Assembly (NCBI GenBank): GCA_902597015.1
Contig: CACJWQ010000003.1
Location: forward strand, 25,434 to 89,433
DNA: 64,000 bases
Direction of reading: 5' to 3'
From: an uncultured Alphaproteobacteria bacterium
GTDB lineage: Bacteria; Pseudomonadota; Alphaproteobacteria; HIMB59; GCA-002718135
The notes beneath the pieces were generated by a model. It searched no databases and was not told the DNA's origin. It saw nothing but the letters and a program-made list of their open reading frames with translations. A program made the translations under genes and the position numbers. Each line of letters begins with the position of its first letter. Position 1 is the stretch's first letter. Of this stretch, positions 1-19,966 are shown one piece after another.

Positions 1-209
1 ATCTTGTTCTCCGTATCGACATCGTAAATTTCTTGAAGACGACTCCATTCTACTGGTTGTGTTCTTTTAATGAAATCAATGACGTGATCTCGGATTAAAC
101 AAAGATTACGGTCATATTCACTGAAATGGTTGGATGAATAACCCGCTGTGTTGAGGTGATCTTCAATTTGATCCTCAAATCTTTTCTCAGTAGGACTGAG
201 ACCATTCAT
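1..209 (-). CDS. hsdR: Type I restriction endonuclease subunit R, N-terminal part (runs off the window; not in the ORF track)
   Basis: Manual translation from ATG at 209, which overlaps the hsdS stop (ATGA): MNGLSPTEKRFEDQIEDHLNTAGYSSNHFSEYDRNLCLIRDHVIDFIKRTQPVEWSRLQEIY. This resembles the HsdR N-terminus (E..FE..IE..L...GY, FI..TQP.EW..L). It lies directly downstream of hsdM-hsdS. Confidence 0.85.
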   Translation of the reverse strand, partial: MNGLSPTEKRFEDQIEDHLNTAGYSSNHFSEYDRNLCLIRDHVIDFIKRTQPVEWSRLQEIYDVDTENK

Positions 210-1474
210 ATCATATCCTCTGAAACACTAACTTTCCCAGTCACGACTGAGGAGATTAAAGATTGTCTGTGCTCGTTTAGAACCAATATTCTATTTGTTT
301 CTAGATCGATTAATTTATCGATTTTTTGAGTAACTTTATTGATTCGTTCCACAATCTCGATTTGTTCTTGAAGACTTGGCAAAAACATTCCTAACGATAA
401 AAACTTCGTTGGTCTAATTGTTTTTCTAAGTCCAGAATAATGAGGTGCTAGTCCTTTAAACTCATCTATCGTGAGATAGTAATAATAGATAAACTCAGCA
501 GATACATCAGTAGAACAGTCAAACACTGTGTATGCTCCGGTTATCATTCCATCTTCATTAGAAAGTCCAACAGTTCTTGGGGTTTCGTCTATATCAAATA
601 AACAAAAAACAAACTGTCCTGCTTTAACTGTTTGGTATGTTTCAAAACTTTCTGGAAATTTTCCCTTCCCCGATTCCAAATCCCTTACAGTGACACCAGA
701 ACGTCTCAAACTTAGTAATGTGTGTTTCGTCCAATGCTCCCCAACAATATTTTTGGATAACTTCAAAAAGTTATTATTTCTTGTGAATTCCCAGTGCTTT
801 GGTATCTCTCCAATCCACTCCACACCACTATCTTTCATCTCAACAGTTGGATTGAGACCTTTGGTGACGTAGTAATTGATCATAAAGGTTCGTTGTTCTT
901 TAAGGAGATCAATTTTCTTCTGAATCTTCTCTACCAATGAATCAATCTGACTGGTCTTTTTATCGAGGTAACGAGAGATCAGTTCTTGCTCTTCGATGGG
1001 GGGAACTGTCAGGTATATATTAGAGAAATCATCCCAACCAATGTTTTTCCCCTGACGAATACCAGTAACGTTTTTATTCAATTCAATAATAAATTGATGT
1101 GATTTCATTAACCATCGAAAGTAAGGGTCATTAATTTTTCTAGTCTTTTCCAAAACTGTGTATGCAGGTGAAACAATTCCTTTAACTGTTGAAAGTTCCA
1201 ATCCACCTTCAAAAGATCTCAGACTAATAACAAAGTTACTTGGTTCAATGAGTTTATAACCCGAAACATCTTCAGTCGGGTTCCAAACATTCAAGTCTGA
1301 CTCACTTCTTAAAACCACACCATCTTTTTGAGTCACTGACAAAAGAGGTTGATCAGGACAGTTCTTGATCGATTTATTCCTAAAAATGAATTTTGATCTT
1401 TTTACTGACCAATGTTTAGGTATTTCAGGAACCCAATCTAAACCAGTATTCTCATATGACTCATATCTATTCAT
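206..1474 (-). CDS. hsdS: Type I R-M specificity subunit S (two TRDs)
   Basis: Repeated conserved blocks GLDWVPEIPKHW and SGVEWIGEIPKHW, PPIEEQ and PSLQEQ, VTKGL, and C-terminal VVTGK. Confidence 0.95.
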   Translation of the reverse strand: MNRYESYENTGLDWVPEIPKHWSVKRSKFIFRNKSIKNCPDQPLLSVTQKDGVVLRSESDLNVWNPTEDVSGYKLIEPSNFVISLRSFEGGLELSTVKGIVSPAYTVLEKTRKINDPYFRWLMKSHQFIIELNKNVTGIRQGKNIGWDDFSNIYLTVPPIEEQELISRYLDKKTSQIDSLVEKIQKKIDLLKEQRTFMINYYVTKGLNPTVEMKDSGVEWIGEIPKHWEFTRNNNFLKLSKNIVGEHWTKHTLLSLRRSGVTVRDLESGKGKFPESFETYQTVKAGQFVFCLFDIDETPRTVGLSNEDGMITGAYTVFDCSTDVSAEFIYYYYLTIDEFKGLAPHYSGLRKTIRPTKFLSLGMFLPSLQEQIEIVERINKVTQKIDKLIDLETNRILVLNEHRQSLISSVVTGKVSVSEDMI

Positions 1475-3173
1475 TAGTCATCTCCAACGACAACTTTTGA
1501 ATTTCATCATCGAGAGTTTTGAGATCACTGGAGATCTCTTCCAAACTTCTCAGTGGGGTGAATTGATAGAAATACTTGGTGAAGTTTATCTCATATCCAA
1601 TTTTATCTTTTGACCGATCCATCCATGACTCAGGTAAATGAGATTTTACTTCACGGTCGTAGTAATAATCAATACTTTCCGAAAGAGGAACTCGTTCTGT
1701 ATCTCGTTTTGAAGTATCTGGTTTGGGGTTTCCATGTTTGTCTTTTTTCATATCACCATCTACAATTAATGGTTGTTCAACAATAATTTTGGTGTATCCA
1801 AAGAAATTATTTGGATAAATTTTACAGAACTCATTTTCTTTATTACCCTGATAAATTTCAAATAATTGTTGGATTTGTTCGTCATTAATATATTTACCCT
1901 TATCACCAAGATTTTTTCTCATTGAAGTTGAGAATGAGGTTCCATCAATGAGTTGAACATTTCCTTTACGATCAGAAGACTTTTTGTTTGTTACAATCCA
2001 AATGTAAGTTGTGATACCGGTATTGAAGAACATCCGATCAGGAAGAGATATAATGCATTCCAACCAGTCATTCTCAATAATCCACTTACGAATTTCTGAC
2101 TCACCACTTCCGGCATCACCAGTAAATAGCGGCGAACCGTTGAAGACTATACCAATTCTTGAACCTGAAGATTCCATTTTACTAATTAAATGCTGTAAAA
2201 ATAACAATGAACCATCTGAAGTTCTTGGTGTTCCAACTGAAAACCTTCCATTTGAGTCTTTCTCTTCTTGTTTTACAAAGTTCTCTTCTGATTTCCAACT
2301 AACACCAAATGGAGGGTTCGTAATCATATAATCAAACTTTCTATCTGGAAATTGATCTTCTGATAGTGAAGATAATGGGCCTTGTATATTTTCTGGATTT
2401 TCATCTGACATTAAAAAATCAGACTTACATATTGCATAAGTTACATCGTTTAATTCTTGTCCAAATAATTCCACTTTTAAATCTTTATTGATATTTTCTT
2501 TAATCCAATCTTTGCCGATAGTTAACATTCCTCCTGTTCCACAACAGGGATCATAAACAGATCGGATTTTTCCTTCTCCTTGTAAATTTTCCTTATCTCC
2601 TCCGAATACAAAAGAGACTAAAAGTTTTACGATATCTCTGGGTGTAAAATGATCACCGCTTTCTTCATTAGACATCTCTGAAAATTTACGAAGAAGTTCT
2701 TCATAAAGAGAACCCATCTGATGATTATCAATTTTACTAGGATGTAAATCAAACTCAGTAAATTTATCAATAAGTAGATATAGTTTTTTATTTTTGTTTA
2801 ACTTTGTAACTAAAGGATCTATTTGAAAATTTTCAATAATATTTAATACATTTTTAGAATATCCATTGATGTAATTTTCAAAATTTTTAAAAACGTTGTT
2901 AGGGTCACTTTTTAATCGTAGTAAGTCGTATTTTGAATAATTAAAAAAGGGTAATTTGAGCTGTCCTTGTATAACTGAAGTTGGATCTTTTAAATCTTTC
3001 TTATATTTTTCATATAGTTCGTGTGCTTTATCTTTTTGCGGCTCTAAAACACAATCTAATCTTCTAAGCACTACAAAAGGGAGGATAATTCTTCCGTATT
3101 CACTGGGTTTAAACATACCCCTTAGAACATCATCTGCAGTACTCCATATTAAAGATGACAAATTTTGATTCAT
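1467..3173 (-). CDS. hsdM: Type I R-M N6-adenine methyltransferase subunit M
   Basis: GDHFTPRD, YDPCCGTGGML (SAM binding), GQELN, NPPF catalytic motif, NGSPLFTGDAGSGESEIR. Confidence 0.96.
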   Translation of the reverse strand: MNQNLSSLIWSTADDVLRGMFKPSEYGRIILPFVVLRRLDCVLEPQKDKAHELYEKYKKDLKDPTSVIQGQLKLPFFNYSKYDLLRLKSDPNNVFKNFENYINGYSKNVLNIIENFQIDPLVTKLNKNKKLYLLIDKFTEFDLHPSKIDNHQMGSLYEELLRKFSEMSNEESGDHFTPRDIVKLLVSFVFGGDKENLQGEGKIRSVYDPCCGTGGMLTIGKDWIKENINKDLKVELFGQELNDVTYAICKSDFLMSDENPENIQGPLSSLSEDQFPDRKFDYMITNPPFGVSWKSEENFVKQEEKDSNGRFSVGTPRTSDGSLLFLQHLISKMESSGSRIGIVFNGSPLFTGDAGSGESEIRKWIIENDWLECIISLPDRMFFNTGITTYIWIVTNKKSSDRKGNVQLIDGTSFSTSMRKNLGDKGKYINDEQIQQLFEIYQGNKENEFCKIYPNNFFGYTKIIVEQPLIVDGDMKKDKHGNPKPDTSKRDTERVPLSESIDYYYDREVKSHLPESWMDRSKDKIGYEINFTKYFYQFTPLRSLEEISSDLKTLDDEIQKLSLEMTNE

Positions 3174-3194
3174 AATTTTGAATTAAATAACGTA

Positions 3195-3650
3195 TTATAG
3201 ATAATTATCATCATCAAGAGGGGACATATATCCATTTTCTATTTCATCCAAGATATTTTGGCTTAATTTAGCTAATTTTAAAGCTTGATTGAGTGTCCAT
3301 ATTTGTTTTGAGGCAATATGAATATTATATGGTTTAATGCCTTTTTTTATATCTGATAGTTCTTCCTTTATTTTTAAAATCAAAAAATCAGCTGCTGAAA
3401 TAGAGTTTGAAGATAACCTCGATAGCTTTATAGCTTTTCCCATAAAATCTTTTCTCATCTTTATTATTTCTTTAAGATTGATTCTTTCTTTTCTTTTTGA
3501 AAGCCAGCCTTCATTAGCTGCTTGCTTTCTTAGTGTTGATAAAGAATAATTGAATTCAGTAGCGATATCTTGAAGAGTAGGGTACTCATTTCTCTCACCT
3601 TTTATGTAATAATTACGTGCTTCAGTATAATCAGTACGTTTTCTTGTCAT
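3195..3650 (-). CDS. Hypothetical helix-turn-helix DNA-binding protein (N-terminus resembles the terminase-small-subunit-type HTH)
   Basis: DYTEARNYYIKG...PTLQDIATEFNYSLSTLRKQAANEGW fits an HTH with the A..EGW ending. It is co-oriented with hsdM, 21 bp upstream. Confidence 0.55.
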   Translation of the reverse strand: MTRKRTDYTEARNYYIKGERNEYPTLQDIATEFNYSLSTLRKQAANEGWLSKRKERINLKEIIKMRKDFMGKAIKLSRLSSNSISAADFLILKIKEELSDIKKGIKPYNIHIASKQIWTLNQALKLAKLSQNILDEIENGYMSPLDDDNYL

Positions 3651-3670
3651 AAAAACATTAATGCGAATGA

Positions 3671-3684
3671 TTCTTTATAAAGAA
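3671..3684. promoter_or_regulatory. Perfect 14-bp palindrome TTCTTTATAAAGAA, candidate operator
   Basis: Read directly. It lies 20 bp upstream of the HTH gene start. The AT-rich context lowers its significance. Confidence 0.35.
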
Positions 3685-3733
3685 AGTTCTAGAAAAAAAT
3701 TTTTGTTTAAAAAAATTTAATAACGTTAATAAA

Positions 3734-4459
3734 TTAATTTTTTAAATTGTTTAAAAGTAAGTTTTTAAATTCCTCAACAGCAACTGTAGCAGGTTTATGA
3801 ATAGCAAAATCAAATTGATCTTGATTACTTGATGGTTCTAGATTTAATTCAATTGTTGGTTTGCGCAAATCTTTAAACATCGTAACAAAACCAGCAGCAG
3901 GGTAGACTTGTCCTGAAGTGCCTATAGAAACAAATAGACTAGATTGTTCGGCCAAATCATGAATTTCATCCATTTGCATAGGCATTTCACCAAACCATAC
4001 GATGTGAGGTCTCATTTGAGAGCCGCATTTAGGGCATTTATGAGTCTCATTTAGGTCCTCTGTCCACTCAAAAACATGATTATCATTCATTATACATCTC
4101 GCCTTATTTAGCTCACCGTGCATATGAATTATTGATGATGATCCTCCAATCTCATGCAAATTATCGATATTTTGTGTAACTATATGAATTTTATATGTTT
4201 TTTCTAATTCATGAAGAAGAATATGGGCCTTATTTGGCTTAATTCCTGAATTTAGTTCTTTTCGACGTTTATTGTAAAAATCATAAACAAGAGTAGGGTT
4301 TCTATAGAATCCTTCAGGACTGGCAACATCTTCAATTCTATGATTGTTCCAAAGTCCATCAGAGTCTCTGAATGTTTCAATTCCAGATTCTTTACTTATA
4401 CCAGCACCGGTTAATACAAAGATCTGGGAATCAGCTGAAATCTCCGGTAATTGTTCCAT
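3734..4459 (-). CDS. cobB: NAD-dependent protein deacylase (class III sirtuin)
   Basis: LTGAGISKESGIETFR, FYNKRR, TQNIDNLHE, HMHGEL, RPHIVWFGE, GTSGQVYPAAG. ATG at 4459 is preferred over GTG at 4468. Confidence 0.92.
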   Translation of the reverse strand: MEQLPEISADSQIFVLTGAGISKESGIETFRDSDGLWNNHRIEDVASPEGFYRNPTLVYDFYNKRRKELNSGIKPNKAHILLHELEKTYKIHIVTQNIDNLHEIGGSSSIIHMHGELNKARCIMNDNHVFEWTEDLNETHKCPKCGSQMRPHIVWFGEMPMQMDEIHDLAEQSSLFVSIGTSGQVYPAAGFVTMFKDLRKPTIELNLEPSSNQDQFDFAIHKPATVAVEEFKNLLLNNLKN

Positions 4460-4586
4460 TTTGTACACTATATACAGTATTTTATTACACGTGAAAATCT
4501 ATATCTAGTTTATAATATTATAATCGTAATTAATTAATTTAATTAATATATTGATTTATAATGATTATTTTTATTACTTGACTATT

Positions 4587-4614
4587 ATTTACGATAACTG
4601 TAATTATCGTAATA
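4587..4614. other. dif/att-like recombination core site ATTTACGATAA-CTGTAA-TTATCGTAATA
   Basis: Perfect 9-bp inverted arms TTACGATAA (4589-4597) and TTATCGTAA (4604-4612) with a 6-bp asymmetric spacer. The 9-bp core ends 8 bp before the recombinase ATG, and TTGACT at 4578 overlaps the region. Confidence 0.65.
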
Positions 4615-4620
4615 TATAAT

Positions 4621-5679
4621 ATGGTTAAAATATCACTAAATGAAAACGTAAGTAAACTAAAGGAAAAATCCAAAGCTAAAAATACTCAGGATAAATATCA
4701 AGGAGATTGGTTAAAGTTTATAGATTATTGCAAAAATAAATACAATTGCAGTCCTTTAGATGTTGATGATCTAGATAGCGCTTACGCATTAACAGCTAAT
4801 TATATGGATTGGTTACATGAAGATCCAGAAGCAAAAATACTCAAAGGATCGAGCAACATACCGGGTAGAGAAAATGTAAATAACAACCCCTACTCCTCTA
4901 CTGCCTATAAGGCTTCCACTATACAAAGAATCTTAGCATCTATTACATATAAATATAGAGTTAACGGATTTCAATTTGATAGAAAAAATCCTAATATTTC
5001 TGAAACAATTAGTGCAATTGTAAGAGATGAAAAAAATAATAAATCTGGTCAAGCAAGAGAGTTGTTAAAAGCAGATATTGAAAAAATTATTGATAATATT
5101 CCAAATGATAATGAAGATTTTAGAAACATAAGAGATAGAGCTCTTATTTTAATTGGTTTTTATAGTTTTTGTAGAAGATCTGAGCTTTTAGGCATGAAAT
5201 ATGAACATCTAAATTTTGAAGAAGATGGTGTTCAAGTATTAATACCTTTTTCTAAGACTGATCAAAAAGGTGAAGGAAGAATGATCTATTTACCTAAAAA
5301 TAATTCACCTTATTGTCCCGTATCTGCGTTAAAGAATTGGTTAGAGGTAGCACTAATTGATTCAGGTCCACTCTTTTATAAAATTAACAAAGCTAATAAT
5401 ATAGAAAAATATATTCTTAATAATAAGAATCAAAAAGTAAGCTTGACTGACACAAGTTTTGTTTTAATTTTAAAGAAAAGAGCTGAGGACGCAGGTATAG
5501 AAAATTGTGATAAAATTTCTGGTCACAGCTTAAGAATAGGTTCGATTACTCAGGCTAGAATGAATGGAGTACCTACTCATGAAATTATGGCTCAAAGCGG
5601 TCATAAGACAACGCAAATGATAGATAGATATACAAAGCTAACAAATATAAAAGAAACTAGTGCAGCAAAAAAATTATAA
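4621..5679 (+). CDS. Tyrosine recombinase/integrase, Cre-like
   Basis: RDRALILIGFYSFCRRSEL (R), SKTDQKG (K), GHSLRIG (HxxR), GHKTTQMIDRY (H...Y), and an N-terminal SAM-like domain (AKNTQDKYQGDW, STIQRILASI). Confidence 0.93.
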   Translation: MVKISLNENVSKLKEKSKAKNTQDKYQGDWLKFIDYCKNKYNCSPLDVDDLDSAYALTANYMDWLHEDPEAKILKGSSNIPGRENVNNNPYSSTAYKASTIQRILASITYKYRVNGFQFDRKNPNISETISAIVRDEKNNKSGQARELLKADIEKIIDNIPNDNEDFRNIRDRALILIGFYSFCRRSELLGMKYEHLNFEEDGVQVLIPFSKTDQKGEGRMIYLPKNNSPYCPVSALKNWLEVALIDSGPLFYKINKANNIEKYILNNKNQKVSLTDTSFVLILKKRAEDAGIENCDKISGHSLRIGSITQARMNGVPTHEIMAQSGHKTTQMIDRYTKLTNIKETSAAKKL

Positions 5680-10274: not shown

Positions 10275-11945
10275 ATGAAAATTAACATTTTTTACCTACT
10301 ATCTAAGATTAGCATTATTTTAATAAGCTTATTATGCATTTTATCTATTCTATTATTTTATAATAATGCAGTTACTTTAAATTCTTTATATATACTCATT
10401 TCTGTATTTATTATTGGTTCTGTAATACAACTAAACAAATTAAAGAAATTTACACGAGTACTATTTACTATCATTATACTTCCTATTTTATCATATCTAA
10501 TGGTAAATTTTTCCTATGATATAGTTATTCAAAAGGAATTTTTTTTAATTAATGAAACAGTAAGTAGCCTTACAGATAAAATCTTACTGATAACTTTATA
10601 TTTTATTCCATCAATATTCATAATGATGTTTTATAAATACGAAGTATTATCACTAAATGATAAATCAGGAACAACAATACCTGAAATAATAACATTTCTT
10701 TTTCAGTTTTTATTATTTGCGATACCTGCATTTTTAGTTTTATCATTTGTTTTTAATTTAGAACTTACAAGTATTCTTGCTGCAGGTGGTATAGTTTTTG
10801 CTGCTATTGCACTTTCATTACAATCAAGCTTATCAGATTTAATTAAAGGAATTTTTGTAAATATTGAAAGACCATTTGCAATAAATGACTGGATTACTGT
10901 TGATGATAAAACAGGTTATGTAGAAAATATTACCTGGAGAAGTACAAGGATAAGGACATTTCAAAATACTGAAGTAATCATTCCAAATGAAATCGTCGCA
11001 GATTCAATTTTAACTAATTGGAGCAAACAAGATAAAGAAAAAATGAGTGAAGGATTTCATATTTTTAATAAACTATATTTTCATCCCTCTCATGATCCAG
11101 AAAATATTTCAAAGTTACTTTATAATGCTCTTAAAAAAGCTAAACCAGTTGATGGAAGAGAGCAATTAAATTTACAGTGGGTTCGTTTTATAGGTGCTAA
11201 TGAGTTTGGATTAGAATTTGTTGTTGCTTTTGATTGCACAAAAAGGATTTTAAAAAATTCGATGCAAGATAGTGTTATGATGGAAATACATAAAACTTTA
11301 AGACATGCAGGCGTTCAAATGTCAGCGGGTAAACTTTATGGAAAACTTGAAGAAGATACAGGACTACATGCTCTTGACACGCACAGAAGTCGAGAGGATT
11401 TTGAAAAAAGACAGGTTAGTGAATTTAATCCTTATAATGAGTCAGTAAAAAATAGAGTTCTTCTTCAAAAAATTCCTATTTTTATGTCTTTAAATTCTGA
11501 AGATTTAGATGAAATTGCTGAAAATGCAGAAAGACTCCATTTTGAAAAAGACGATTACATTATTAAACAAAATGATTCTGGAGATTCTCTTTACGTTATA
11601 AATGACGGAGTAGTATCTGTTTACTTAGATAATGAAAATAAAGATAAAGTATTTTTAGCTAAACTTGGTGTTGGGGACTTTGTTGGTGAAGGAAGTCTTC
11701 TAACTGGTGAACCAAGATCTGCTAATGTTATAGCTGAAACTCCTTGCATAGTTATAAAAGTAAGCAAGGATATAATAAAAGATATATTTTCTAAAAACCC
11801 TAATGTGTATGATTATGTTGCAAATATTTTAGCACAAAGAAAGTTAAAACTTGATAAGAAAAAAAATGAAAGTCAATTAACTAAAGATGAAAATAAAAAT
11901 CTTGTTAATGATATTAAGAATGCAATAATAAATTTTTTAAAATAG
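10275..11945 (+). CDS. MscS-family channel with a C-terminal cyclic-nucleotide-binding domain
   Basis: ALSLQSSLSDLIKGIFVNIERPFAINDWI...ITWRSTRIRT...IIPN (MscS); IIKQNDSGDSLYVI and FVGEGSLLTGEPRSANV (CNBD phosphate-binding cassette). Confidence 0.92.
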   Translation: MKINIFYLLSKISIILISLLCILSILLFYNNAVTLNSLYILISVFIIGSVIQLNKLKKFTRVLFTIIILPILSYLMVNFSYDIVIQKEFFLINETVSSLTDKILLITLYFIPSIFIMMFYKYEVLSLNDKSGTTIPEIITFLFQFLLFAIPAFLVLSFVFNLELTSILAAGGIVFAAIALSLQSSLSDLIKGIFVNIERPFAINDWITVDDKTGYVENITWRSTRIRTFQNTEVIIPNEIVADSILTNWSKQDKEKMSEGFHIFNKLYFHPSHDPENISKLLYNALKKAKPVDGREQLNLQWVRFIGANEFGLEFVVAFDCTKRILKNSMQDSVMMEIHKTLRHAGVQMSAGKLYGKLEEDTGLHALDTHRSREDFEKRQVSEFNPYNESVKNRVLLQKIPIFMSLNSEDLDEIAENAERLHFEKDDYIIKQNDSGDSLYVINDGVVSVYLDNENKDKVFLAKLGVGDFVGEGSLLTGEPRSANVIAETPCIVIKVSKDIIKDIFSKNPNVYDYVANILAQRKLKLDKKKNESQLTKDENKNLVNDIKNAIINFLK

Positions 11946-11955
11946 AATAAATCCC

Positions 11956-13242
11956 CTACTCTCCATCAATTTCTTTACTAAAATCTTCTTGTAATTTTTT
12001 CAATTCTTTCATTGCAGCCTTCATATCAGAACTATCAAATATTTGAATATCCACGTGGTTACCTTTTTTCGAATATGATTTTTTTGTTTTGCTATTTTTC
12101 TTATTTTTAAAATCAATTACCTTGTAAGTTTTAACAGGTCTTACAAAACCTTTAGGAGTTATTTTTTCATACTCTTCACAGTTTATTTGATTTTTAACTA
12201 AATTATATGTTGTATCAGAAATAATAATTTCATTTTCAGGAGAAATTGATTGCAATCTAGAGGCTAAATTTACAGAAGAACCTATTGCTGTATAATCACT
12301 CATTACGCTAGATCCAAAATCACCAACATTTGCAAAACCTGAAGAGATTCCATATCTTACCTTTAATCCACCTTTAACACCCTGTCTGATCCAGAAAGAT
12401 TGCAGTTCTTTAACTCGTTCTTTCATTTCTAAAGCCATGCTTATACAATTAATAGCATCATTCTCATCTCCTAGTGTTTCAGGAGCTCCATGAAAGGAAA
12501 GAATTGCATCTCCAATAAATTTGTCAATTGTTGCATTTGAATTTATTGCAATTAAACTCATTTCACTTAGATAATTATTTAAGATTAAAGCAAGTTTTTC
12601 TGCTTCTAACGAATCAGATAAATCAGTAAAATTTACAATATCAGAGAAAAAAATTGTTAAATTTTTTCTTACGTAGCTTTCTTTTGTTTTTTTTCCTGAC
12701 TCTTCTTCATCAAAAATAGACTTATATACTTGAGGTGAAAGATATTTTGATAACCTATTAGCAATATTTTCTAATCTTTTCGTTTTTTCTTCAATCAATT
12801 CTCTATCTTTTAATTTTTGATCAAGTAATTCTTCCTTCTCCCTTCGAAGATTATATTCATCTGTTCGATCAACAAATTGTCCTTGAATACCATTTAAAAA
12901 AGGGAAATCTTTGTTTTCAGTATAAGCGGAAAGTAAAGAATATACTTTAATTTCATCACCAATTTTGATTTCTATTTTAGGAATAATAACAAAACCATTT
13001 TTTTCTAAATTTTGTTGAAAATTTTTAATATATTCATCCCCAACTCCAAGTTGTTCTAAAATACTAGTAAAAGGAATATTATTTACAGTTTTAAGAATTG
13101 GAAAAAATTTTTTAAAATTTTTATTTACTCGCAAAACTTCTAAGTTACGATTGGCAAAATAAGCTGCAGTGACAGCATTAGAGAAATTAAAAAAGCTTAA
13201 ATCTATGACAGTTTTTTGATCAAAAAACTTATCAAGTTTCAT
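11956..13242 (-). CDS. Class III adenylate cyclase with an N-terminal PAS-like domain and coiled coil
   Basis: TIFFSDIVNFT, DKFIGDAIL, RYGISSG, DYTAIGSSVNLASRLQ; LSKYLSPQV linker. Confidence 0.92.
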   Translation of the reverse strand: MKLDKFFDQKTVIDLSFFNFSNAVTAAYFANRNLEVLRVNKNFKKFFPILKTVNNIPFTSILEQLGVGDEYIKNFQQNLEKNGFVIIPKIEIKIGDEIKVYSLLSAYTENKDFPFLNGIQGQFVDRTDEYNLRREKEELLDQKLKDRELIEEKTKRLENIANRLSKYLSPQVYKSIFDEEESGKKTKESYVRKNLTIFFSDIVNFTDLSDSLEAEKLALILNNYLSEMSLIAINSNATIDKFIGDAILSFHGAPETLGDENDAINCISMALEMKERVKELQSFWIRQGVKGGLKVRYGISSGFANVGDFGSSVMSDYTAIGSSVNLASRLQSISPENEIIISDTTYNLVKNQINCEEYEKITPKGFVRPVKTYKVIDFKNKKNSKTKKSYSKKGNHVDIQIFDSSDMKAAMKELKKLQEDFSKEIDGE

Positions 13243-13253
13243 TTTTTATTTAA

Positions 13254-13778
13254 TTATGGGTGATGTTTAGTAATTCCGCTAATATAATCCATTATTGCTA
13301 TAACTAATCCTGATAAAATAAATACAGCATGAATAAATATCATTAAGTAAATTTCTTCTGATGTTTTTGAGCCAACATCAATAAAAGCTTCTAGCAAACC
13401 AATACTTGAAATAGCTACTATTGAAGCAATAAGTTTTAATTTCAAACCTGAAAAATCTAGTTTACCCATCCACTCTGGCTTATCTTCTGATTGATTTGCA
13501 ATATCAATTTTTGAAACAAAATTTTCATATCCAGCAAATATAACCATTAAAACTAAATTTCCTACAAGAGCTAAGTCAACAATATGTAATACAAAAACAA
13601 GAAGTTCATTTAAACTTAAGTCATTTAAGTGTGTGATTTCATAAATGAATAATGCAATAACTTTGTATGTAATAACTAGTAGAGTAAGACATAGAGCAAC
13701 ATAAACAGGAGCTAATGCCCATCTGCTTGAAAACATTGCTCTTTCAAGTAATCCTTCAAATACTCTACGCATAAACAA
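13254..13778 (-). CDS. yqhA: UPF0114/YqhA-family membrane protein
   Basis: FSSRWALAPVY, GYENFVSKID, KLKLIASIVAISSI. Confidence 0.88.
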   Translation of the reverse strand: MFMRRVFEGLLERAMFSSRWALAPVYVALCLTLLVITYKVIALFIYEITHLNDLSLNELLVFVLHIVDLALVGNLVLMVIFAGYENFVSKIDIANQSEDKPEWMGKLDFSGLKLKLIASIVAISSIGLLEAFIDVGSKTSEEIYLMIFIHAVFILSGLVIAIMDYISGITKHHP

Positions 13779-15652: not shown

Positions 15653-16540
15653 TTAAAGTTTAATCGGTATTGATTGCTTTGCTATATCTTTTTTTAGATA
15701 ATTTTCTCTATAAGTAATAATCAGAATTGATGAAAAAATTATTAAACCTCCTACTATTGTCCAAATATCAGGTATTTCATCAAAAATTAAAAACCCAAAT
15801 AATGATGCAATCAGTAGTCTGGAAAAGTTTACAGGTTGTAAAACCGATAAATCAGTAAGCTTATAAGCTGTATTTATACATAAATGTACTATCGTCCCAG
15901 CAATCCCAGCAAATATTAAATAATAGAATGTTTCTGATGAAGGAGATTGCCAAAAATATAAAGCAATAGGAAAAGATAAGAATGTGACTAAGGTATATTG
16001 GTAAGATAAAATTGTAAATGCACTATCAACTCTTGCCGCAAATTTTGTAATTATGACAACTACTGACCAAATAGAACAAGAACATAAAACTAAATATGCC
16101 CCCACATTTATTGGAACAATACCTGGTCTCAAAATAACAAAGACCCCGAATAGACCGATCAGTAAAGCACCAATACGAATTAAATAAATTTTTTCTTTCA
16201 AAAAAATTACACTTAAAACAACTACAATTATAGGTGTAACAAAAGAAATTGCTTTGATTTGTTCTAAAGGTATAAATTGTAATGCAGAAAATCCAAGTAA
16301 CATCATTGGGATATTTAAAATACCTCTTGTTAAATGAATTTTTAGATTTGGTGTCTTAAAGTTTTGAAATTTAGTATAAAAAATAAAAGGCAGAATTAAA
16401 ATAAACCCAAAAAAAAATCTTAAAAATCCAGCGGTAAATACATTAATGTCTTGAAGGGAAAATTTAACAAGAACATTCATTGTTACTCCTGAAACAGAAG
16501 CAACTAATGCTAGAATAATAGCTTTTACATTATTATTCAT
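15653..16540 (-). CDS. EamA/DMT transporter (tandem paralog)
   Basis: FLRFFFG, FLKEKI, VILRPG, FDEIPDIWT. Confidence 0.9.
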   Translation of the reverse strand: MNNNVKAIILALVASVSGVTMNVLVKFSLQDINVFTAGFLRFFFGFILILPFIFYTKFQNFKTPNLKIHLTRGILNIPMMLLGFSALQFIPLEQIKAISFVTPIIVVVLSVIFLKEKIYLIRIGALLIGLFGVFVILRPGIVPINVGAYLVLCSCSIWSVVVIITKFAARVDSAFTILSYQYTLVTFLSFPIALYFWQSPSSETFYYLIFAGIAGTIVHLCINTAYKLTDLSVLQPVNFSRLLIASLFGFLIFDEIPDIWTIVGGLIIFSSILIITYRENYLKKDIAKQSIPIKL

Positions 16541-16543
16541 AAG

Positions 16544-17653
16544 TTATACGAATGGAATATCGCAAATTTCTCCTTTGTATTTTTTATTCTCTATAATGAT
16601 ATCAAACTGATCTTTAGTCAAAAAGTATGGTTTAGTTATCATTGCAATTCCAATCACCATGTTAAATGTAGGTGAAAATACTGCAGATCTAATTTCTCCA
16701 ATTATTTTATCACCAATTGTTAAGTGAATTGCTGATCTTAGATTAATTTTATCAAGATTAATCTTTACTCCCATTAATTTTTTATTAATTCCATTTTCTT
16801 TAATTTTAATTAATTTATCTTTTCCAAGAAAATCAATATCATTATCAAGATGAACAAATTTATCTAATCCACATTCAAATGGATTATCATTTATATCCAT
16901 ATCGTTACCATAAGAGAGCAAAGCTCCTTCAATTCTTTCAATTAAATGAGGACATCCTGGTTTGACTTCAAGCTCCCTACCTTCTTCAAATAATAAATCG
17001 TATAATTCTAAACCAGATTTAGTATCTTCGACATAAATTTCTACACCGCCCTGTTTTGACCAACCAGATCTAGCAATTAAATGTTTGGTATTTTTAAAAT
17101 TAAAATATTTAAAATTATAAAATTTTAATTCTAAAATTTCTTTACCAAAAACTTTCTCTAACAAATCAAAAGCCTTAGGACCTTGAACAGCCAAAATATT
17201 TACATCAGGCTCAGTAATAGAAACTTCAAAATTTTTTCCTATAGCAAGACCTTTAGCAAACAGCATTACGTCTGAATCAGCAATTGAAATCCACCATTTT
17301 TCATTGTTAAATTTCAGCACTACGGGATCATTAATCATTCCTCCATTTTCATCAATTATTGGACAATAATAACATTTACCTTCTTTGGCCTTACTTAAAT
17401 CCCTACAAGTCATTAATTGAACTAATTGGTACGCGTCCTTACCTTTAATTTCTATTTGTCTCTCAGCAGCTACATCCCATATTTGAACATGATTTTTTAA
17501 ATGATTGTATGTTTCTTCAAGACTTCCTTCAAAACCTGCAGGAAGTAACATATGATTGTATATTGTATAAGAAGTAACGCCCTGATTTTCAATTCTGGAA
17601 GAATAAATAGTACTTCTCAACCTTCTTGATTTAGCTACAAATTGTTTGGGCAT
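16544..17653 (-). CDS. dmdA: DMSP demethylase (GcvT family)
   Basis: 369 aa. [45 protein letters not shown] and [10 protein letters not shown] closely follow Pelagibacter DmdA as remembered. Confidence 0.93.
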
Positions 17654-17721
17654 GGAAGACTCGTATAAATATTTGTATTAAATTAGTCTACATCTAAATA
17701 AAATAAATTTGATTTAATGAA

Positions 17722-17892
17722 TCAAAGAAAATAATTGTAGGCAAAGTAAAAAGATAAAACAACCAATACAATAGCTACCCAAATAGATAAGTTAGTAAAA
17801 AAAGTTTTTAAATTATTATTTGAGCTTAAGAAAGAGGGTAAAATCAATAAAAGCACTCCAAACATATAAATAATTGGAACTAACTTATCCAT
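17722..17892 (-). CDS. Small 2-TM membrane protein, 56 aa (below the ORF-track cut-off)
   Basis: Manual translation MDKLVPIIYMFGVLLLILPSFLSSNNNLKTFFTNLSIWVAIVLVVLSFYFAYNYFL. It starts 3 bp after the upstream gene's stop and fills the gap. Confidence 0.7.
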   Translation of the reverse strand: MDKLVPIIYMFGVLLLILPSFLSSNNNLKTFFTNLSIWVAIVLVVLSFYFAYNYFL

Positions 17893-17895
17893 TTA

Positions 17896-18756
17896 TTAAT
17901 ATTTTTCCTTATCAATTAATTCACTAACAAGTAAATTTCCAAATCCTTTTTTTGATGCTTGTTTGTAAAATGATTTTGCTATTTTTGAGAGTTTATTAGC
18001 ATTTGGCAAATCTGAAACAAGATCATTAATATAATTTAAATCTTTATATGTATTATCTACAGAAAAAACATATCCTTTAAAATTACCTTTTATAGCTTTA
18101 TCTGCAATTCTATCTAAAGCCCCTGAATTTCCAGAACCCAATCTAGCAACATCACATAACAGTTTAATATCAATATTTAGTTTTTTTGCAGATTTAAAGA
18201 ATTCAATGACACTGGTCGTAGTCATTAATGATAAAAAGTTAGATAATAATTTTGCAGAAGATGCCTTTGATACATCACCAAAATTAAAAACAGACTTACA
18301 AAATGAATTAAGGTACTTTTTACATTGTAAAAAATTACTTTTTTTACCTCCATAAATTCCACCTAATATACCCTGCTCACTTTGAACTGGCCCACCCATT
18401 ACACCACAAAAATTATAGCTTATTTTTTTTGAATTAAAAATTTTATCCATTTTTAAAGCACCATTTTTATTATGTGTTGTTAAATCTATTACAAGTGTTT
18501 TACGATCAAGTTGTTGTTTAATTTTCTTTGCTACATTCAAAGCAACGGGTGTATTTGTTACACATATCATTAAACAATCAAGTTTATATTTTTGTATTTC
18601 ATTATATGATTTTAATTCTTTAGCTCCGATTTTTTTTAATTTGTTTATGGGTTTTCTATTTTTATGAGCAAAAATAAATACATTATGTTTTTTTAATAAA
18701 TTTTTAGCCATTCCATAGCCCATATAGCCAACACCTATAAATCCTATATTGCTCAT
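17896..18756 (-). CDS. Beta-hydroxyacid (3-hydroxyisobutyrate/6PGD-like) NAD(P)-dependent dehydrogenase
   Basis: IGFIGVGYMGYGMAKNL, VIDLTT, VMGGP, AKLLSN. Confidence 0.88.
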   Translation of the reverse strand: MSNIGFIGVGYMGYGMAKNLLKKHNVFIFAHKNRKPINKLKKIGAKELKSYNEIQKYKLDCLMICVTNTPVALNVAKKIKQQLDRKTLVIDLTTHNKNGALKMDKIFNSKKISYNFCGVMGGPVQSEQGILGGIYGGKKSNFLQCKKYLNSFCKSVFNFGDVSKASSAKLLSNFLSLMTTTSVIEFFKSAKKLNIDIKLLCDVARLGSGNSGALDRIADKAIKGNFKGYVFSVDNTYKDLNYINDLVSDLPNANKLSKIAKSFYKQASKKGFGNLLVSELIDKEKY

Positions 18757-18805
18757 AAGGATAACTATAGTGAAAAAATTATTATTTAAAAGTGAATTAT
18801 CAATT

Positions 18806-19966
18806 TTAATTATTTCTTGATGAAATAAAAGAAACTACTAATACAATAATTAAAAGAGGAACGCATAAAAGATTTATAATAGTCCAATTTGAAAAATATA
18901 GAAGAAAACCAGCTGATAATGATCCTATGCCTTGAGTAGAAAAAACAATAAAATCATTTAAACCTTGTGCAGTAAATCTATCCTTTTCCTCATAAGAAAC
19001 AACCAACAAACTTGAACCTGAAACAAATAAAAAATTCCAGCCAATACCAAGTAATATTAAACCTAGCATATAAGAATAATAAAAATCAAAGAATGTATTC
19101 GTTATAATACTTAGAAACAAAATACTTACTCCTGCATATATAATATTGGTATTTCCAAATCTTTTTATTAAATCTCCAGAAAACAATGAGGGTAAAAACA
19201 TGCCAATAACATGAAGTTGAATTACGATACTGGTTTCAAATAAAGTAAATTTATTAACAAGATACATATGTAAAGGAGTAGCAGTCATAATTATAGCCAT
19301 TGTAAAATAACCAAGACCAGCGCTTACGATTGATTGTATAATTTTAATATTTTTTAAAAGTTTGAAAATAGTTTGAATTTCAAATTTGCTTTGATCATTA
19401 AAAGTTTTTGTTTCCTTATAAAAAAGAAGAACAAAGAAGGGAATGATTGCTGTAAACGATAAGAAAATATAACTACCAAGAAATAAATTGCTTGGAAAAA
19501 AATCTTTAAAATATTCTGCAAAATTAGAAGAAAGCAATGCGGAGACTATACCCAATAACAATATTATTGAGATAGATCTTGGAATAAATTCTTTAGAAAC
19601 TGACTCAGATGCAGCAAATCGATACTGATGAATGAACGCTTGTGAGCTACCAATTAAAAAATTACCTAATGCAAAAATAAAAAAATTTTCCAAATATATT
19701 GCGATTGAACAAATAATTAAAGCTAAGCAACTTAAAAGAGATGAAAATAAAAATCCTTTCTGCCTCCCCCAGATACTCATAAATCTAGATGCAATAGGTG
19801 CGCTTATTGCTATACCTATAATCATTAATGTCATTGGAACTGTTACTAATGAATCTTGCATCATTATTTGGGATGTAATTATTCCACCTAATAAAACTAC
19901 GGCCATAGGTGGAAAAGCTGCAATTGTAGAAGAAATACAAATAACAATAAAATTTTTATTAATCAT
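18806..19966 (-). CDS. MFS transporter
   Basis: 12 TM; WGRQKGF, QYRFAASE, MTATPL, LGIGWNFLFVSGS. Confidence 0.9.
   Translation of the reverse strand: MINKNFIVICISSTIAAFPPMAVVLLGGIITSQIMMQDSLVTVPMTLMIIGIAISAPIASRFMSIWGRQKGFLFSSLLSCLALIICSIAIYLENFFIFALGNFLIGSSQAFIHQYRFAASESVSKEFIPRSISIILLLGIVSALLSSNFAEYFKDFFPSNLFLGSYIFLSFTAIIPFFVLLFYKETKTFNDQSKFEIQTIFKLLKNIKIIQSIVSAGLGYFTMAIIMTATPLHMYLVNKFTLFETSIVIQLHVIGMFLPSLFSGDLIKRFGNTNIIYAGVSILFLSIITNTFFDFYYSYMLGLILLGIGWNFLFVSGSSLLVVSYEEKDRFTAQGLNDFIVFSTQGIGSLSAGFLLYFSNWTIINLLCVPLLIIVLVVSFISSRNN

Follow-up and report, generated by a model that had tools for sequence, protein, structure and literature searches.

The window analysed here is a 64,000-nucleotide stretch of contig C3 (positions 25434-89433) from the genome of an uncultured alphaproteobacterium, assembled as 1.2 Mb in 58 contigs and 66.7% complete, which we call SAR11 after the names of its nearest protein relatives (SAR11/Pelagibacter). 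At its left end lies an hsdM-hsdS-hsdR operon from which the dinucleotide 5'-GC-3' (hereafter GC) and the amino acid alanine are largely missing. The three genes are overlapping, intact open reading frames (ORFs) of 568, 422 and 986 amino acids on one strand (Table 1), as in a Type I restriction-modification (R-M) operon. HsdM joins an N6 methylase domain and HsdM_N to the catalytic motif TNPPF at residue 285, and HsdR, the ORF at 10682-13642 of the window's locus (L001), has the N-terminal nuclease region and superfamily 2 motor of a Type I subunit (Pfam HSDR_N 4e-13, SWI2_SNF2 2.9e-29, ResIII 5.2e-17, T1R_D3-like 4e-11), with 28 GC and 14 alanines in the whole gene. Methylase_S matches the window HsdS in a single stretch, residues 100-188, and its relative at locus L042 in two stretches. 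Judged by its domains, the operon is an ordinary-looking Type I R-M system, and its activity is predicted.

Its composition is not ordinary. A first-pass annotation, made from the sequence alone, had counted about 26 GC by hand in window 1-3173; we count 26, against 88.7 predicted by base composition (Poisson P = 4.5e-15) and 110.9 predicted at the genome's GC odds ratio of 1.25 (P = 3.2e-22), and the same interval holds 64 CG. The GC-free gap of some 890 bp that it described is equally real, with 25.0 GC expected and 15 CG inside, and our alanine counts for HsdM and HsdS agree with its figures. The six peptide strings in which it saw alanine replaced are all present, in HsdM as DPCCG (residue 208), TNPPF, RIGIV (339), LECIISLP (371) and NTGITTY (384), and in HsdS as LISSVVTGK (406). 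By codon position, the GC of hsdS are distributed 5/0/5. The depletion spans the entire operon, from the hsdM start at window 3173 leftward to C3:22682, and is the sole extended low-GpC stretch in the genome (4597 sliding windows). That the signal stops at the hsdM start and that the genes to the right are normal also holds: orf151 (151 amino acids) has 16 GC and 10 alanines, sites of the word RGCY (R, purine; Y, pyrimidine) reappear at C3:28693, and the alanine content of the operon's neighbours is 4.5-6.6%, the genome median being 5.05% (839 ORFs). RGCY accounts for 3 of the 26 GC in window 1-3173, and the fourth such site of the operon lies in hsdR at C3:25025. Other alanine-poor genes of this genome were considered as relatives of the signal and rejected, being merely very AT-rich (17-25% G+C) and unrelated.

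Table 1. Features of the depleted operon, in window coordinates (aa, amino acids)
Feature	Position	Strand	Remarks
hsdR, first 69 codons	1..209	(-)	986-aa gene runs on left of the window to contig C3:22682
hsdS, specificity subunit, 422 aa, 5 Ala	206..1474	(-)	Pfam Methylase_S, E = 7.8e-11
Longest GC-free stretch of the window copy	1165..2054		GC at 1164, next at 2055; 891-bp gap
hsdM, adenine methyltransferase, 568 aa, 4 Ala	1467..3173	(-)	Pfam N6_Mtase 1.1e-61, HsdM_N 3.2e-22
Residual RGCY (GGCC)	2378..2381
Residual RGCY (AGCT)	2959..2962
Residual RGCY (GGCT)	3040..3043
Right border of the depleted unit	3174..3194		GC, RGCY and Ala normal from orf151 (3195-3650) onward

The deficit in the window copy lies mostly in alanine codons

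We compared the operon with simulated genes in which the amino-acid sequence was held fixed and codons were drawn from host usage. GC at codon positions 2-3 numbered 11 observed against 23.5 simulated, and GC at codon junctions 19 against 19.6, or about 29 after calibration of the junctions on 60 host genes. Alanine codons number 23 in 1976 amino acids, against about 100 at 5%. The deficit in the window copy is mostly one of missing alanine codons, the deficit outside alanine being only about two-fold, and a clean purge at the level of DNA is visible in the relatives of this copy and not in the copy itself. The view of the first-pass annotation that the effect acts on DNA rather than only on amino acids stands for the GC-free relatives described below and, in the window copy, applies to the smaller part of the deficit.

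GC-free and alanine-free islands carry the same operon

All 120 of the nearest HsdM homologs (81-100% identity) carry only 1-10 alanines. Equally alanine-poor close homologs had been named in advance as a result that would speak against the idea of a pressure on GpC; they do not refute it, because these homologs belong to the same mobile clade. A scan with one genome per species gave 80 loci in many phyla. Eleven of these, with hosts in Bacteroidota, SAR86 and Cloacimonadota, have an hsdM of about 1.7 kb with no GC and no alanine at all, a further six have 1-5 GC in hsdM, and three more distant cluster representatives are likewise without alanine. More distant members of the family (Poribacteria, Chloroflexota and others) are normal, with 19-48 alanines and odds ratios of 0.6-1.5.

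Integrative islands of 8-16 kb carry the same operon in Bacteroidota, SAR86, Cloacimonadota and metagenomes. These contain no GC over 14 kb (L045), 15.8 kb (L042) and 13.5 kb (L023), and one GC in 11 kb (L033). The borders of the GC-free islands are sharp and lie exactly at tRNA genes or beside glmS, non-coding DNA is GC-free right up to these attachment borders, and the flanking host genes have 84-97 GC each. The GC odds ratio falls from 1.25 in the flanks to 0.01 over 108.6 kb of pooled islands, and other dinucleotides are near normal. None of the ORFs within these islands encodes alanine, and they include a tyrosine integrase, serine recombinases of the large and small types, an HNH nuclease, PDC-S18 (a candidate defence nuclease) and many unknowns. 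Over all 61 loci, GC-free ORFs number 310 and contain 14 alanines in 87,887 amino acids. The first-pass annotation had supposed that the operon spent a long evolutionary period in some other replicon subject to strong pressure against GpC, and this replicon can now be named as a family of GC-free, alanine-free integrative islands.

The Type I genes are only one of the loads that such islands bear. A search of metagenome contigs with the large serine recombinase gave 54 loci, many of them GC-free throughout, of which some hold the same Type I system and others different cargo or unknown genes. L118 and L119 carry a ParB-N6_N4 methylase and L137 a C5 cytosine methylase, L123 has PDC-S26 beside hsdMSR, and one complete 8-kb GC-free island at glmS has no Type I genes. 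Since the R-M load differs from one GC-free island to another, the purge belongs to the mobile element and not to the R-M system.

Further searches help to place the family. The HsdM of a GC-free island has no relative above 50% identity among plasmid and phage records, and the large serine recombinase has no match among viral contigs. HsdM compared with viral contigs gave 21 loci, four of them in the low-GC clade, of which only L083 is depleted across its whole 15.3 kb, and comparison with other islands indicates that its genes are island genes and not phage genes. Of 401 Bacteroidota genomes, the one that bears L042 is alone in containing a match to the tyrosine integrase of that island, and the alanine-free C5 methylase of L137 has two relatives at 37% identity among viral contigs, which are uninformative. 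Pfam assignments for 91 island proteins and 10 small ORFs comprise recombinases, PD-(D/E)XK and HNH nucleases, PDC-S18 and PDC-S26 candidates and helix-turn-helix proteins, with no deaminase, RNase toxin or GpC methylase among them. The literature that we searched contains no report of GC-free or alanine-free islands, nor of RGCY avoidance in cyanophages.

Individual islands show further features. L137 (1-11257) is an 11-kb metagenome contig of about 44% G+C in which one GC remains, where about 48 would be expected per kb, and it encodes a second S-adenosylmethionine-dependent methyltransferase beside its alanine-free C5 methylase. In L005 a fully GC-free and alanine-free module (16024-19461; proteins of 189, 73, 399 and 122 amino acids, the 399-residue one resembling PDC-S26) adjoins a partly relaxed R-M operon, so that a single island can combine purged with relaxed parts. 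The residual GC of L022 lies in two pairs of inverted repeats, 5498-5560/7322-7384 and 8538-8709/18240-18411, one flanking a serine recombinase gene and the other an R-M segment of about 10 kb; both pairs have the look of recombinase sites, and the second hints at a module that can invert or transpose.

The window operon is a relaxed descendant of GC-free islands

In a quick maximum-likelihood tree of HsdM (76 rows; five were dropped for internal stops or short length), partly recovered copies nest within GC-free clades (L046 at 96*, L035 at 97*). The starred clade of 18 rows that contains the window's copy is alanine-poor throughout (3-12 alanines), with odds ratios that run from 0.11 to 1.26. 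Amelioration from a GC-free ancestor should yield just such copies, with a GC odds ratio back to normal and few alanines, and the window HsdM has regained alanine at 3 of the 14 columns that are conserved as alanine in normal relatives. The operon in the window derives from mobile islands free of GC and alanine, has since relaxed in part, and keeps its scarcity of alanine as a fossil.

The direction of substitution bears on how the purge came about. Across these 14 columns in 17 GC-free proteins (238 cells), conserved alanine is replaced by serine in 129 cells, cysteine in 32, glycine in 18, valine in 17 and threonine in 14; the replacements are the chemically nearest residues. In the islands GT/AC, GA/TC and GG/CC are each raised about 1.28-fold. 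The absence of a surplus at the products of deamination, whether GT/AC in the DNA or valine and threonine in the proteins, points to selection and not deamination. Among the agents proposed by the first-pass annotation, a nuclease fits best, and GpC methylation followed by deamination finds no support in these counts.

RGCY remains excluded in marine copies

When residual GC were classed by their neighbouring bases, the relaxed copies from the surface ocean proved to be selective in what they had regained. RGCY makes up 4 of the 53 GC in the window's operon, where about 38-49 RGCY would be expected. Nine other operons with 20-80 GC have none, namely four of SAR11 type (0/51, 0/64, 0/73, 0/51), two of SAR116 type (0/34, 0/33), two from Prochlorococcus (0/20, 0/80) and one viral-collection contig (0/24). 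A copy from Cellvibrionaceae has neither RGCY nor YGCR among its 19 GC, and relaxed copies in Arenicellales, Thermodesulfobacteriota, Poribacteria and others have normal RGCY shares. In the rest of the window's genome RGCY is 25.7% of GC, with a minimum of 17% over 318 six-kb windows; its mean spacing is about 148 bp, and the two longest gaps are both inside the operon.

A SAR116 single-cell genome is free of RGCY throughout its locus of 21.7 kb, and RGCY-free gaps measure 14.1 kb in Pelagibacter HIMB1746 and 6.8-7.9 kb elsewhere. The RGCY-free island of HIMB1746 ends at a tmRNA gene and includes genes with normal alanine content (15/305, 15/400). Exclusion of RGCY still constrains whole islands in SAR11 and is distinct from the fossil loss of alanine, and it has the form of restriction-site avoidance, in that a short symmetric word is under-represented within a mobile unit while flanks and genome are normal. 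This identity of the excluded word, like the relaxed state of the window copy and the mostly amino-acid level of its deficit, goes beyond what the first-pass annotation held.

We note that two SAR11 genomes from cultured strains (L002 19678-19986, L012 9552-9860) have their RGCY-free island immediately beside the tmRNA gene. In the pooled marine RGCY-free islands CCWGG (W, A or T) stands at 0.60, against 2.42 in the SAR11 genome, which may represent a second, weaker avoidance; CCWGG has also been reported as a methylated motif in marine myovirus-like genomes.

Marine T4-like myophages avoid the same word

The avoidance of RGCY is shared by all five marine T4-like myophages tested. The ratio of observed to expected RGCY is 0.16 in P-SSM4 and 0.25 in HTVC008M over whole genomes, and 0.23 in P-SSM2, 0.20 in Syn9 and 0.28 in S-PM2 over 80 kb each. 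It is 1.18 in T4 and 0.67 in KVP40, which served as controls, 1.27 in the podophage P-SSP7, 0.99 in the podophage HTVC010P and 1.29 in the SAR11 host genome, and YGCR and the asymmetric contexts lie at 0.77-1.46 in all phages and genomes compared. The records of the myophage HTVC008M and the podophage HTVC010P name the same host strain. An RGCY enzyme borne by the host should have marked both phages, which argues that the pressure on RGCY travels with the T4-like myophages. According to the long-read methylomes of Hiraoka et al. 2022 (PMC8919816), RGCY is the commonest methylated motif in marine viral metagenome-assembled genomes (9 V-MAGs), where it is listed as an N4-methylcytosine (m4C) motif common to Myoviridae-like viruses; viral motifs are described there as seldom shared with prokaryotic metagenome-assembled genomes (MAGs), and its authors leave open what viral methylation does.

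Several observations on these phages stand apart from the comparison. In P-SSM4 (L162, 40590-43188) a gene annotated 'restriction endonuclease II' directly precedes two DNA methyltransferase genes, and neither it nor the methyltransferase gene that follows it has a Pfam match. In the marine phage genomes L159-L199, CCGG falls to 0.08 in the five Kyanoviridae and to none in HTVC010P, where 22 are expected, the two podophages have almost no GGCC (0/22, 6/63), and CGCG stands at 0.12 in the myophages. The Bacteroidota phages phi38:1, phiST, 11b, phi14:2 and PTm1 show no avoidance of GC; PTm1, a large Tenacibaculum myophage (L218-L221), has a moderate depletion of RGCY (0.54) that is not seen in the other four.

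Proposed avoidance of a frequent-cutting nuclease

We consider it somewhat more probable than the reverse that the islands avoid GC, or RGCY, as sites of a frequent-cutting double-strand DNA nuclease, which in the ocean would belong to T4-like myophages. The operon came to SAR11 as cargo of the small integrative islands, which over a long time shed every GC on both strands, coding and non-coding, and with it every alanine codon. The pressure would arise where an unmethylated island meets an endonuclease whose site has a GC core, so that a cut at any site left could destroy the element altogether. In the surface-ocean hosts (SAR11, SAR116, Prochlorococcus) the word excluded is RGCY, and other GC contexts have returned along with a few alanines. 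The nuclease would be used by the myophages (Kyanoviridae) together with RGCY methylation of their own DNA, and a word-free island would survive whole in an infected cell as it lyses and could be passed on. The purge and its extent, the descent from GC-free islands, the specific exclusion of RGCY and the avoidance of RGCY by the myophages are what the data show; a nuclease as the agent, its carriage by phages and the gain to the island are steps that we infer. In its most general form, in which aquatic mobile defence islands escape nucleases with sites of 2-4 bp by deleting the word from their whole sequence at the price of an alanine-free proteome, the ocean nuclease being RGCY-specific, derived from T4-like myophages and paired with RGCY m4C, the idea is tentative, and we would not expect all of it to hold.

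A number of points weigh against a phage-borne nuclease as the agent. No cognate endonuclease, that is, no RGCY- or GC-specific nuclease gene, was identified among the phage genes or in the island census, where the Pfam assignments of the 91 proteins revealed no obvious agent of the purge. The P-SSM4 'restriction endonuclease II' has relatives in no more than 16 records, which represent about 8 cyanomyophages, and none in HTVC008M. Nor was an RGCY methylase identified, PF01555 being detected in one of four phage records but not in HTVC008M, and PF00145 in none of five. The all-GC purge has no counterpart among the five Bacteroidota phages tested, whose GC odds ratios are 0.86-1.42. The window copy itself retains four RGCY, and its junction GC are not clearly depleted when taken without calibration. 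The HsdM tree comes from a quick search with a midpoint root, weak deep nodes and five rows dropped, and the 104 kb of pooled marine stretches in which AGCC/GGCT and GGCC number 0 and AGCT 1 were selected as RGCY-free gaps, so that these zero counts are circular and only the lengths carry weight. Finally, the benefit to an integrated island of staying intact in a doomed cell is conjectural.

The same avoidance could have been imposed at entry, if the frequent cutter (acting at RGCY in the ocean and at GC-core sites elsewhere) were the resident R-M system of recipient cells and unmethylated islands shed its site as phages do. The all-GC-free islands under-use other palindromes (CTAG 0.17-0.25, GATC 0.26-0.50, CATG 0.37-0.43, CCGG 0.41), the usual mark of crossing many R-M barriers, and they are present in many phyla; avoidance and methylation of RGCY by myophages could equally be a counter-defence against host enzymes. 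However, podophages of the same host groups (HTVC010P and P-SSP7) are not depleted, the host chromosomes are rich in RGCY, viral motifs are seldom shared with prokaryotic MAGs in the account of Hiraoka et al. 2022 (PMC8919816), and the window's genome, only 66.7% complete, yielded no C5 methylase. The last result we count in favour of a phage-borne nuclease, and we regard restriction at entry as unlikely. Avoidance could also act on RNA. MqsR is an endoribonuclease that cuts GCU, and a GC-specific enzyme of this kind would destroy ordinary transcripts and leave those of the island immune. Every gene on both strands is GC-free, the self-complementarity of GC makes the coding strand indistinguishable, and the intergenic spacers are short and largely transcribed, all of which would suit such an enzyme. 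It would not account for GC-free non-coding DNA right up to the attachment borders, and what marine copies still exclude is a degenerate palindrome, symmetric under reverse complementation, which is a hallmark of dimeric enzymes acting on double-stranded DNA. With no RNase or toxin family among the 91 island proteins and 10 small ORFs, and with a loss of every alanine that would imply a cost per site above that of one mRNA cut, we give this explanation very little credence.

Two further explanations dispense with cleavage. Under mutational erosion, methylation of GpC cytosines or a deaminase preferring GC would turn GC into GT or AC, which would clear the word at all codon positions and in non-coding DNA alike, by analogy with the loss of CpG in vertebrates and with APOBEC footprints. 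Yet conserved alanine has become serine, cysteine or glycine in 179 of 238 cells and valine or threonine in 31, the rise of GT/AC is no greater than that of GA/TC or GG/CC, and the borders are base-sharp at the attachment sites with the adjoining host DNA untouched. The Pfam census contains no deaminase and the C5 methylase occurs in L137 only, and erosion as the cause appears very improbable to us. A cause at the protein level, such as attack on tRNA-Ala or an alanine-directed protease, would require proteins free of alanine and make the DNA signal a by-product. It would fit the window copy, in which most of the GC deficit is missing alanine codons, but is already contradicted by the absence of GC out of frame and in non-coding DNA: the ancestral islands lack it at codon positions 2-3, at junctions and between genes over the 108.6 kb pooled, and the HIMB1746 island genes with normal alanine still have no RGCY. 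We find a protein-level cause scarcely credible. GpC-binding drugs of the actinomycin or bleomycin type, avoidance of sigma-54 promoters, Chi, primase sites, CRISPR protospacer-adjacent motifs, McrBC acting on methylated G-mC and codon reassignment were considered and set aside, since none can explain an absolute, sharp-bordered purge in many phyla.

Comparison with known systems

Avoidance by the islands of a nuclease site resembles restriction-site avoidance in phages, plasmids and genomes with R-M systems (e.g. PMC4687349) in that a short symmetric word is rare in mobile DNA and the neighbouring host DNA is normal. The moderately low CTAG, GATC, CATG and CCGG of the same islands are a further likeness. 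The islands differ in that the avoidance is absolute over 8-16 kb, reaches down to a dinucleotide and has cost every protein an amino acid, and we know of no cognate enzyme for their avoidance of GC or RGCY.

The closest parallel in recognition word is CviJI of Chlorella viruses, a virus-borne frequent cutter of RGCY that degrades host DNA while viral DNA methylated by M.CviJI is spared. The word excluded in our per-operon counts is the same, and marine myophages avoid and reportedly methylate it. In the marine case, in contrast, the methylation is described as m4C, and the hosts are bacteria and not algae. To our knowledge, an unprotected host island that escapes by having no sites has not been described for systems of the CviJI type. 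T4 breaks down host DNA with EndoII and EndoIV, which act on cytosine DNA, its own DNA being protected by hydroxymethylcytosine. A T4-like phage thus tells its own from host DNA chemically and destroys the latter, as we propose here, but T4 itself does not avoid RGCY, and its marine relatives would use a sequence word together with methylation.

Depletion of CpG by methylation and deamination, and of APOBEC motifs, also leaves a dinucleotide or short motif strongly depleted; it is driven by mutation and leaves an excess of products (TpG/CpA). The islands differ in having no excess of GT/AC and in replacing alanine mostly by serine, which is not the signature of deamination. In architecture the islands resemble tycheposon-like elements, the small integrative islands of marine picoplankton found at tRNA and tmRNA genes, with which they share insertion at tRNA, tmRNA or glmS genes, tyrosine or large serine recombinases and variable cargo. 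We know of no report of word-free sequence in such elements.

Implications

Whatever the agent, the islands demonstrate that functional methylases, helicase-nucleases, integrases and recombinases can be built without any alanine, and its repeated loss over elements of 8-16 kb sets a bound on the strength of selection that a sequence word can exert on mobile DNA. The RGCY-free islands of SAR11, SAR116 and Prochlorococcus mirror the avoidance and reported methylation of RGCY in myophages, and the three together point to a nuclease, so far unrecognised and cutting very often, that would be a major force acting on the ocean's most abundant microbes. If the nuclease is phage-borne and paired with RGCY m4C, it would account for the viral methylation motif that is commonest in the sea, and word-free islands would be the only host DNA to leave a lysed cell intact and transferable. 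Word-free stretches can also serve as an annotation-free signature for mobile defence islands and, through them, for unknown nucleases. The idea is directly testable, because cultured SAR11 strains bearing the islands (HIMB1746, HIMB2250) and isolated myophages exist.

Surroundings of the window copy

No tRNA or tmRNA gene was found near the window's copy at L001. To the right of the operon, window 3195-5679 encodes the 151-residue ORF of unknown function, a Sir2-family gene and a tyrosine integrase, all with normal GC, RGCY and alanine. The normal composition of these three genes indicates that the operon is embedded in, or adjoins, a different and ordinary island.

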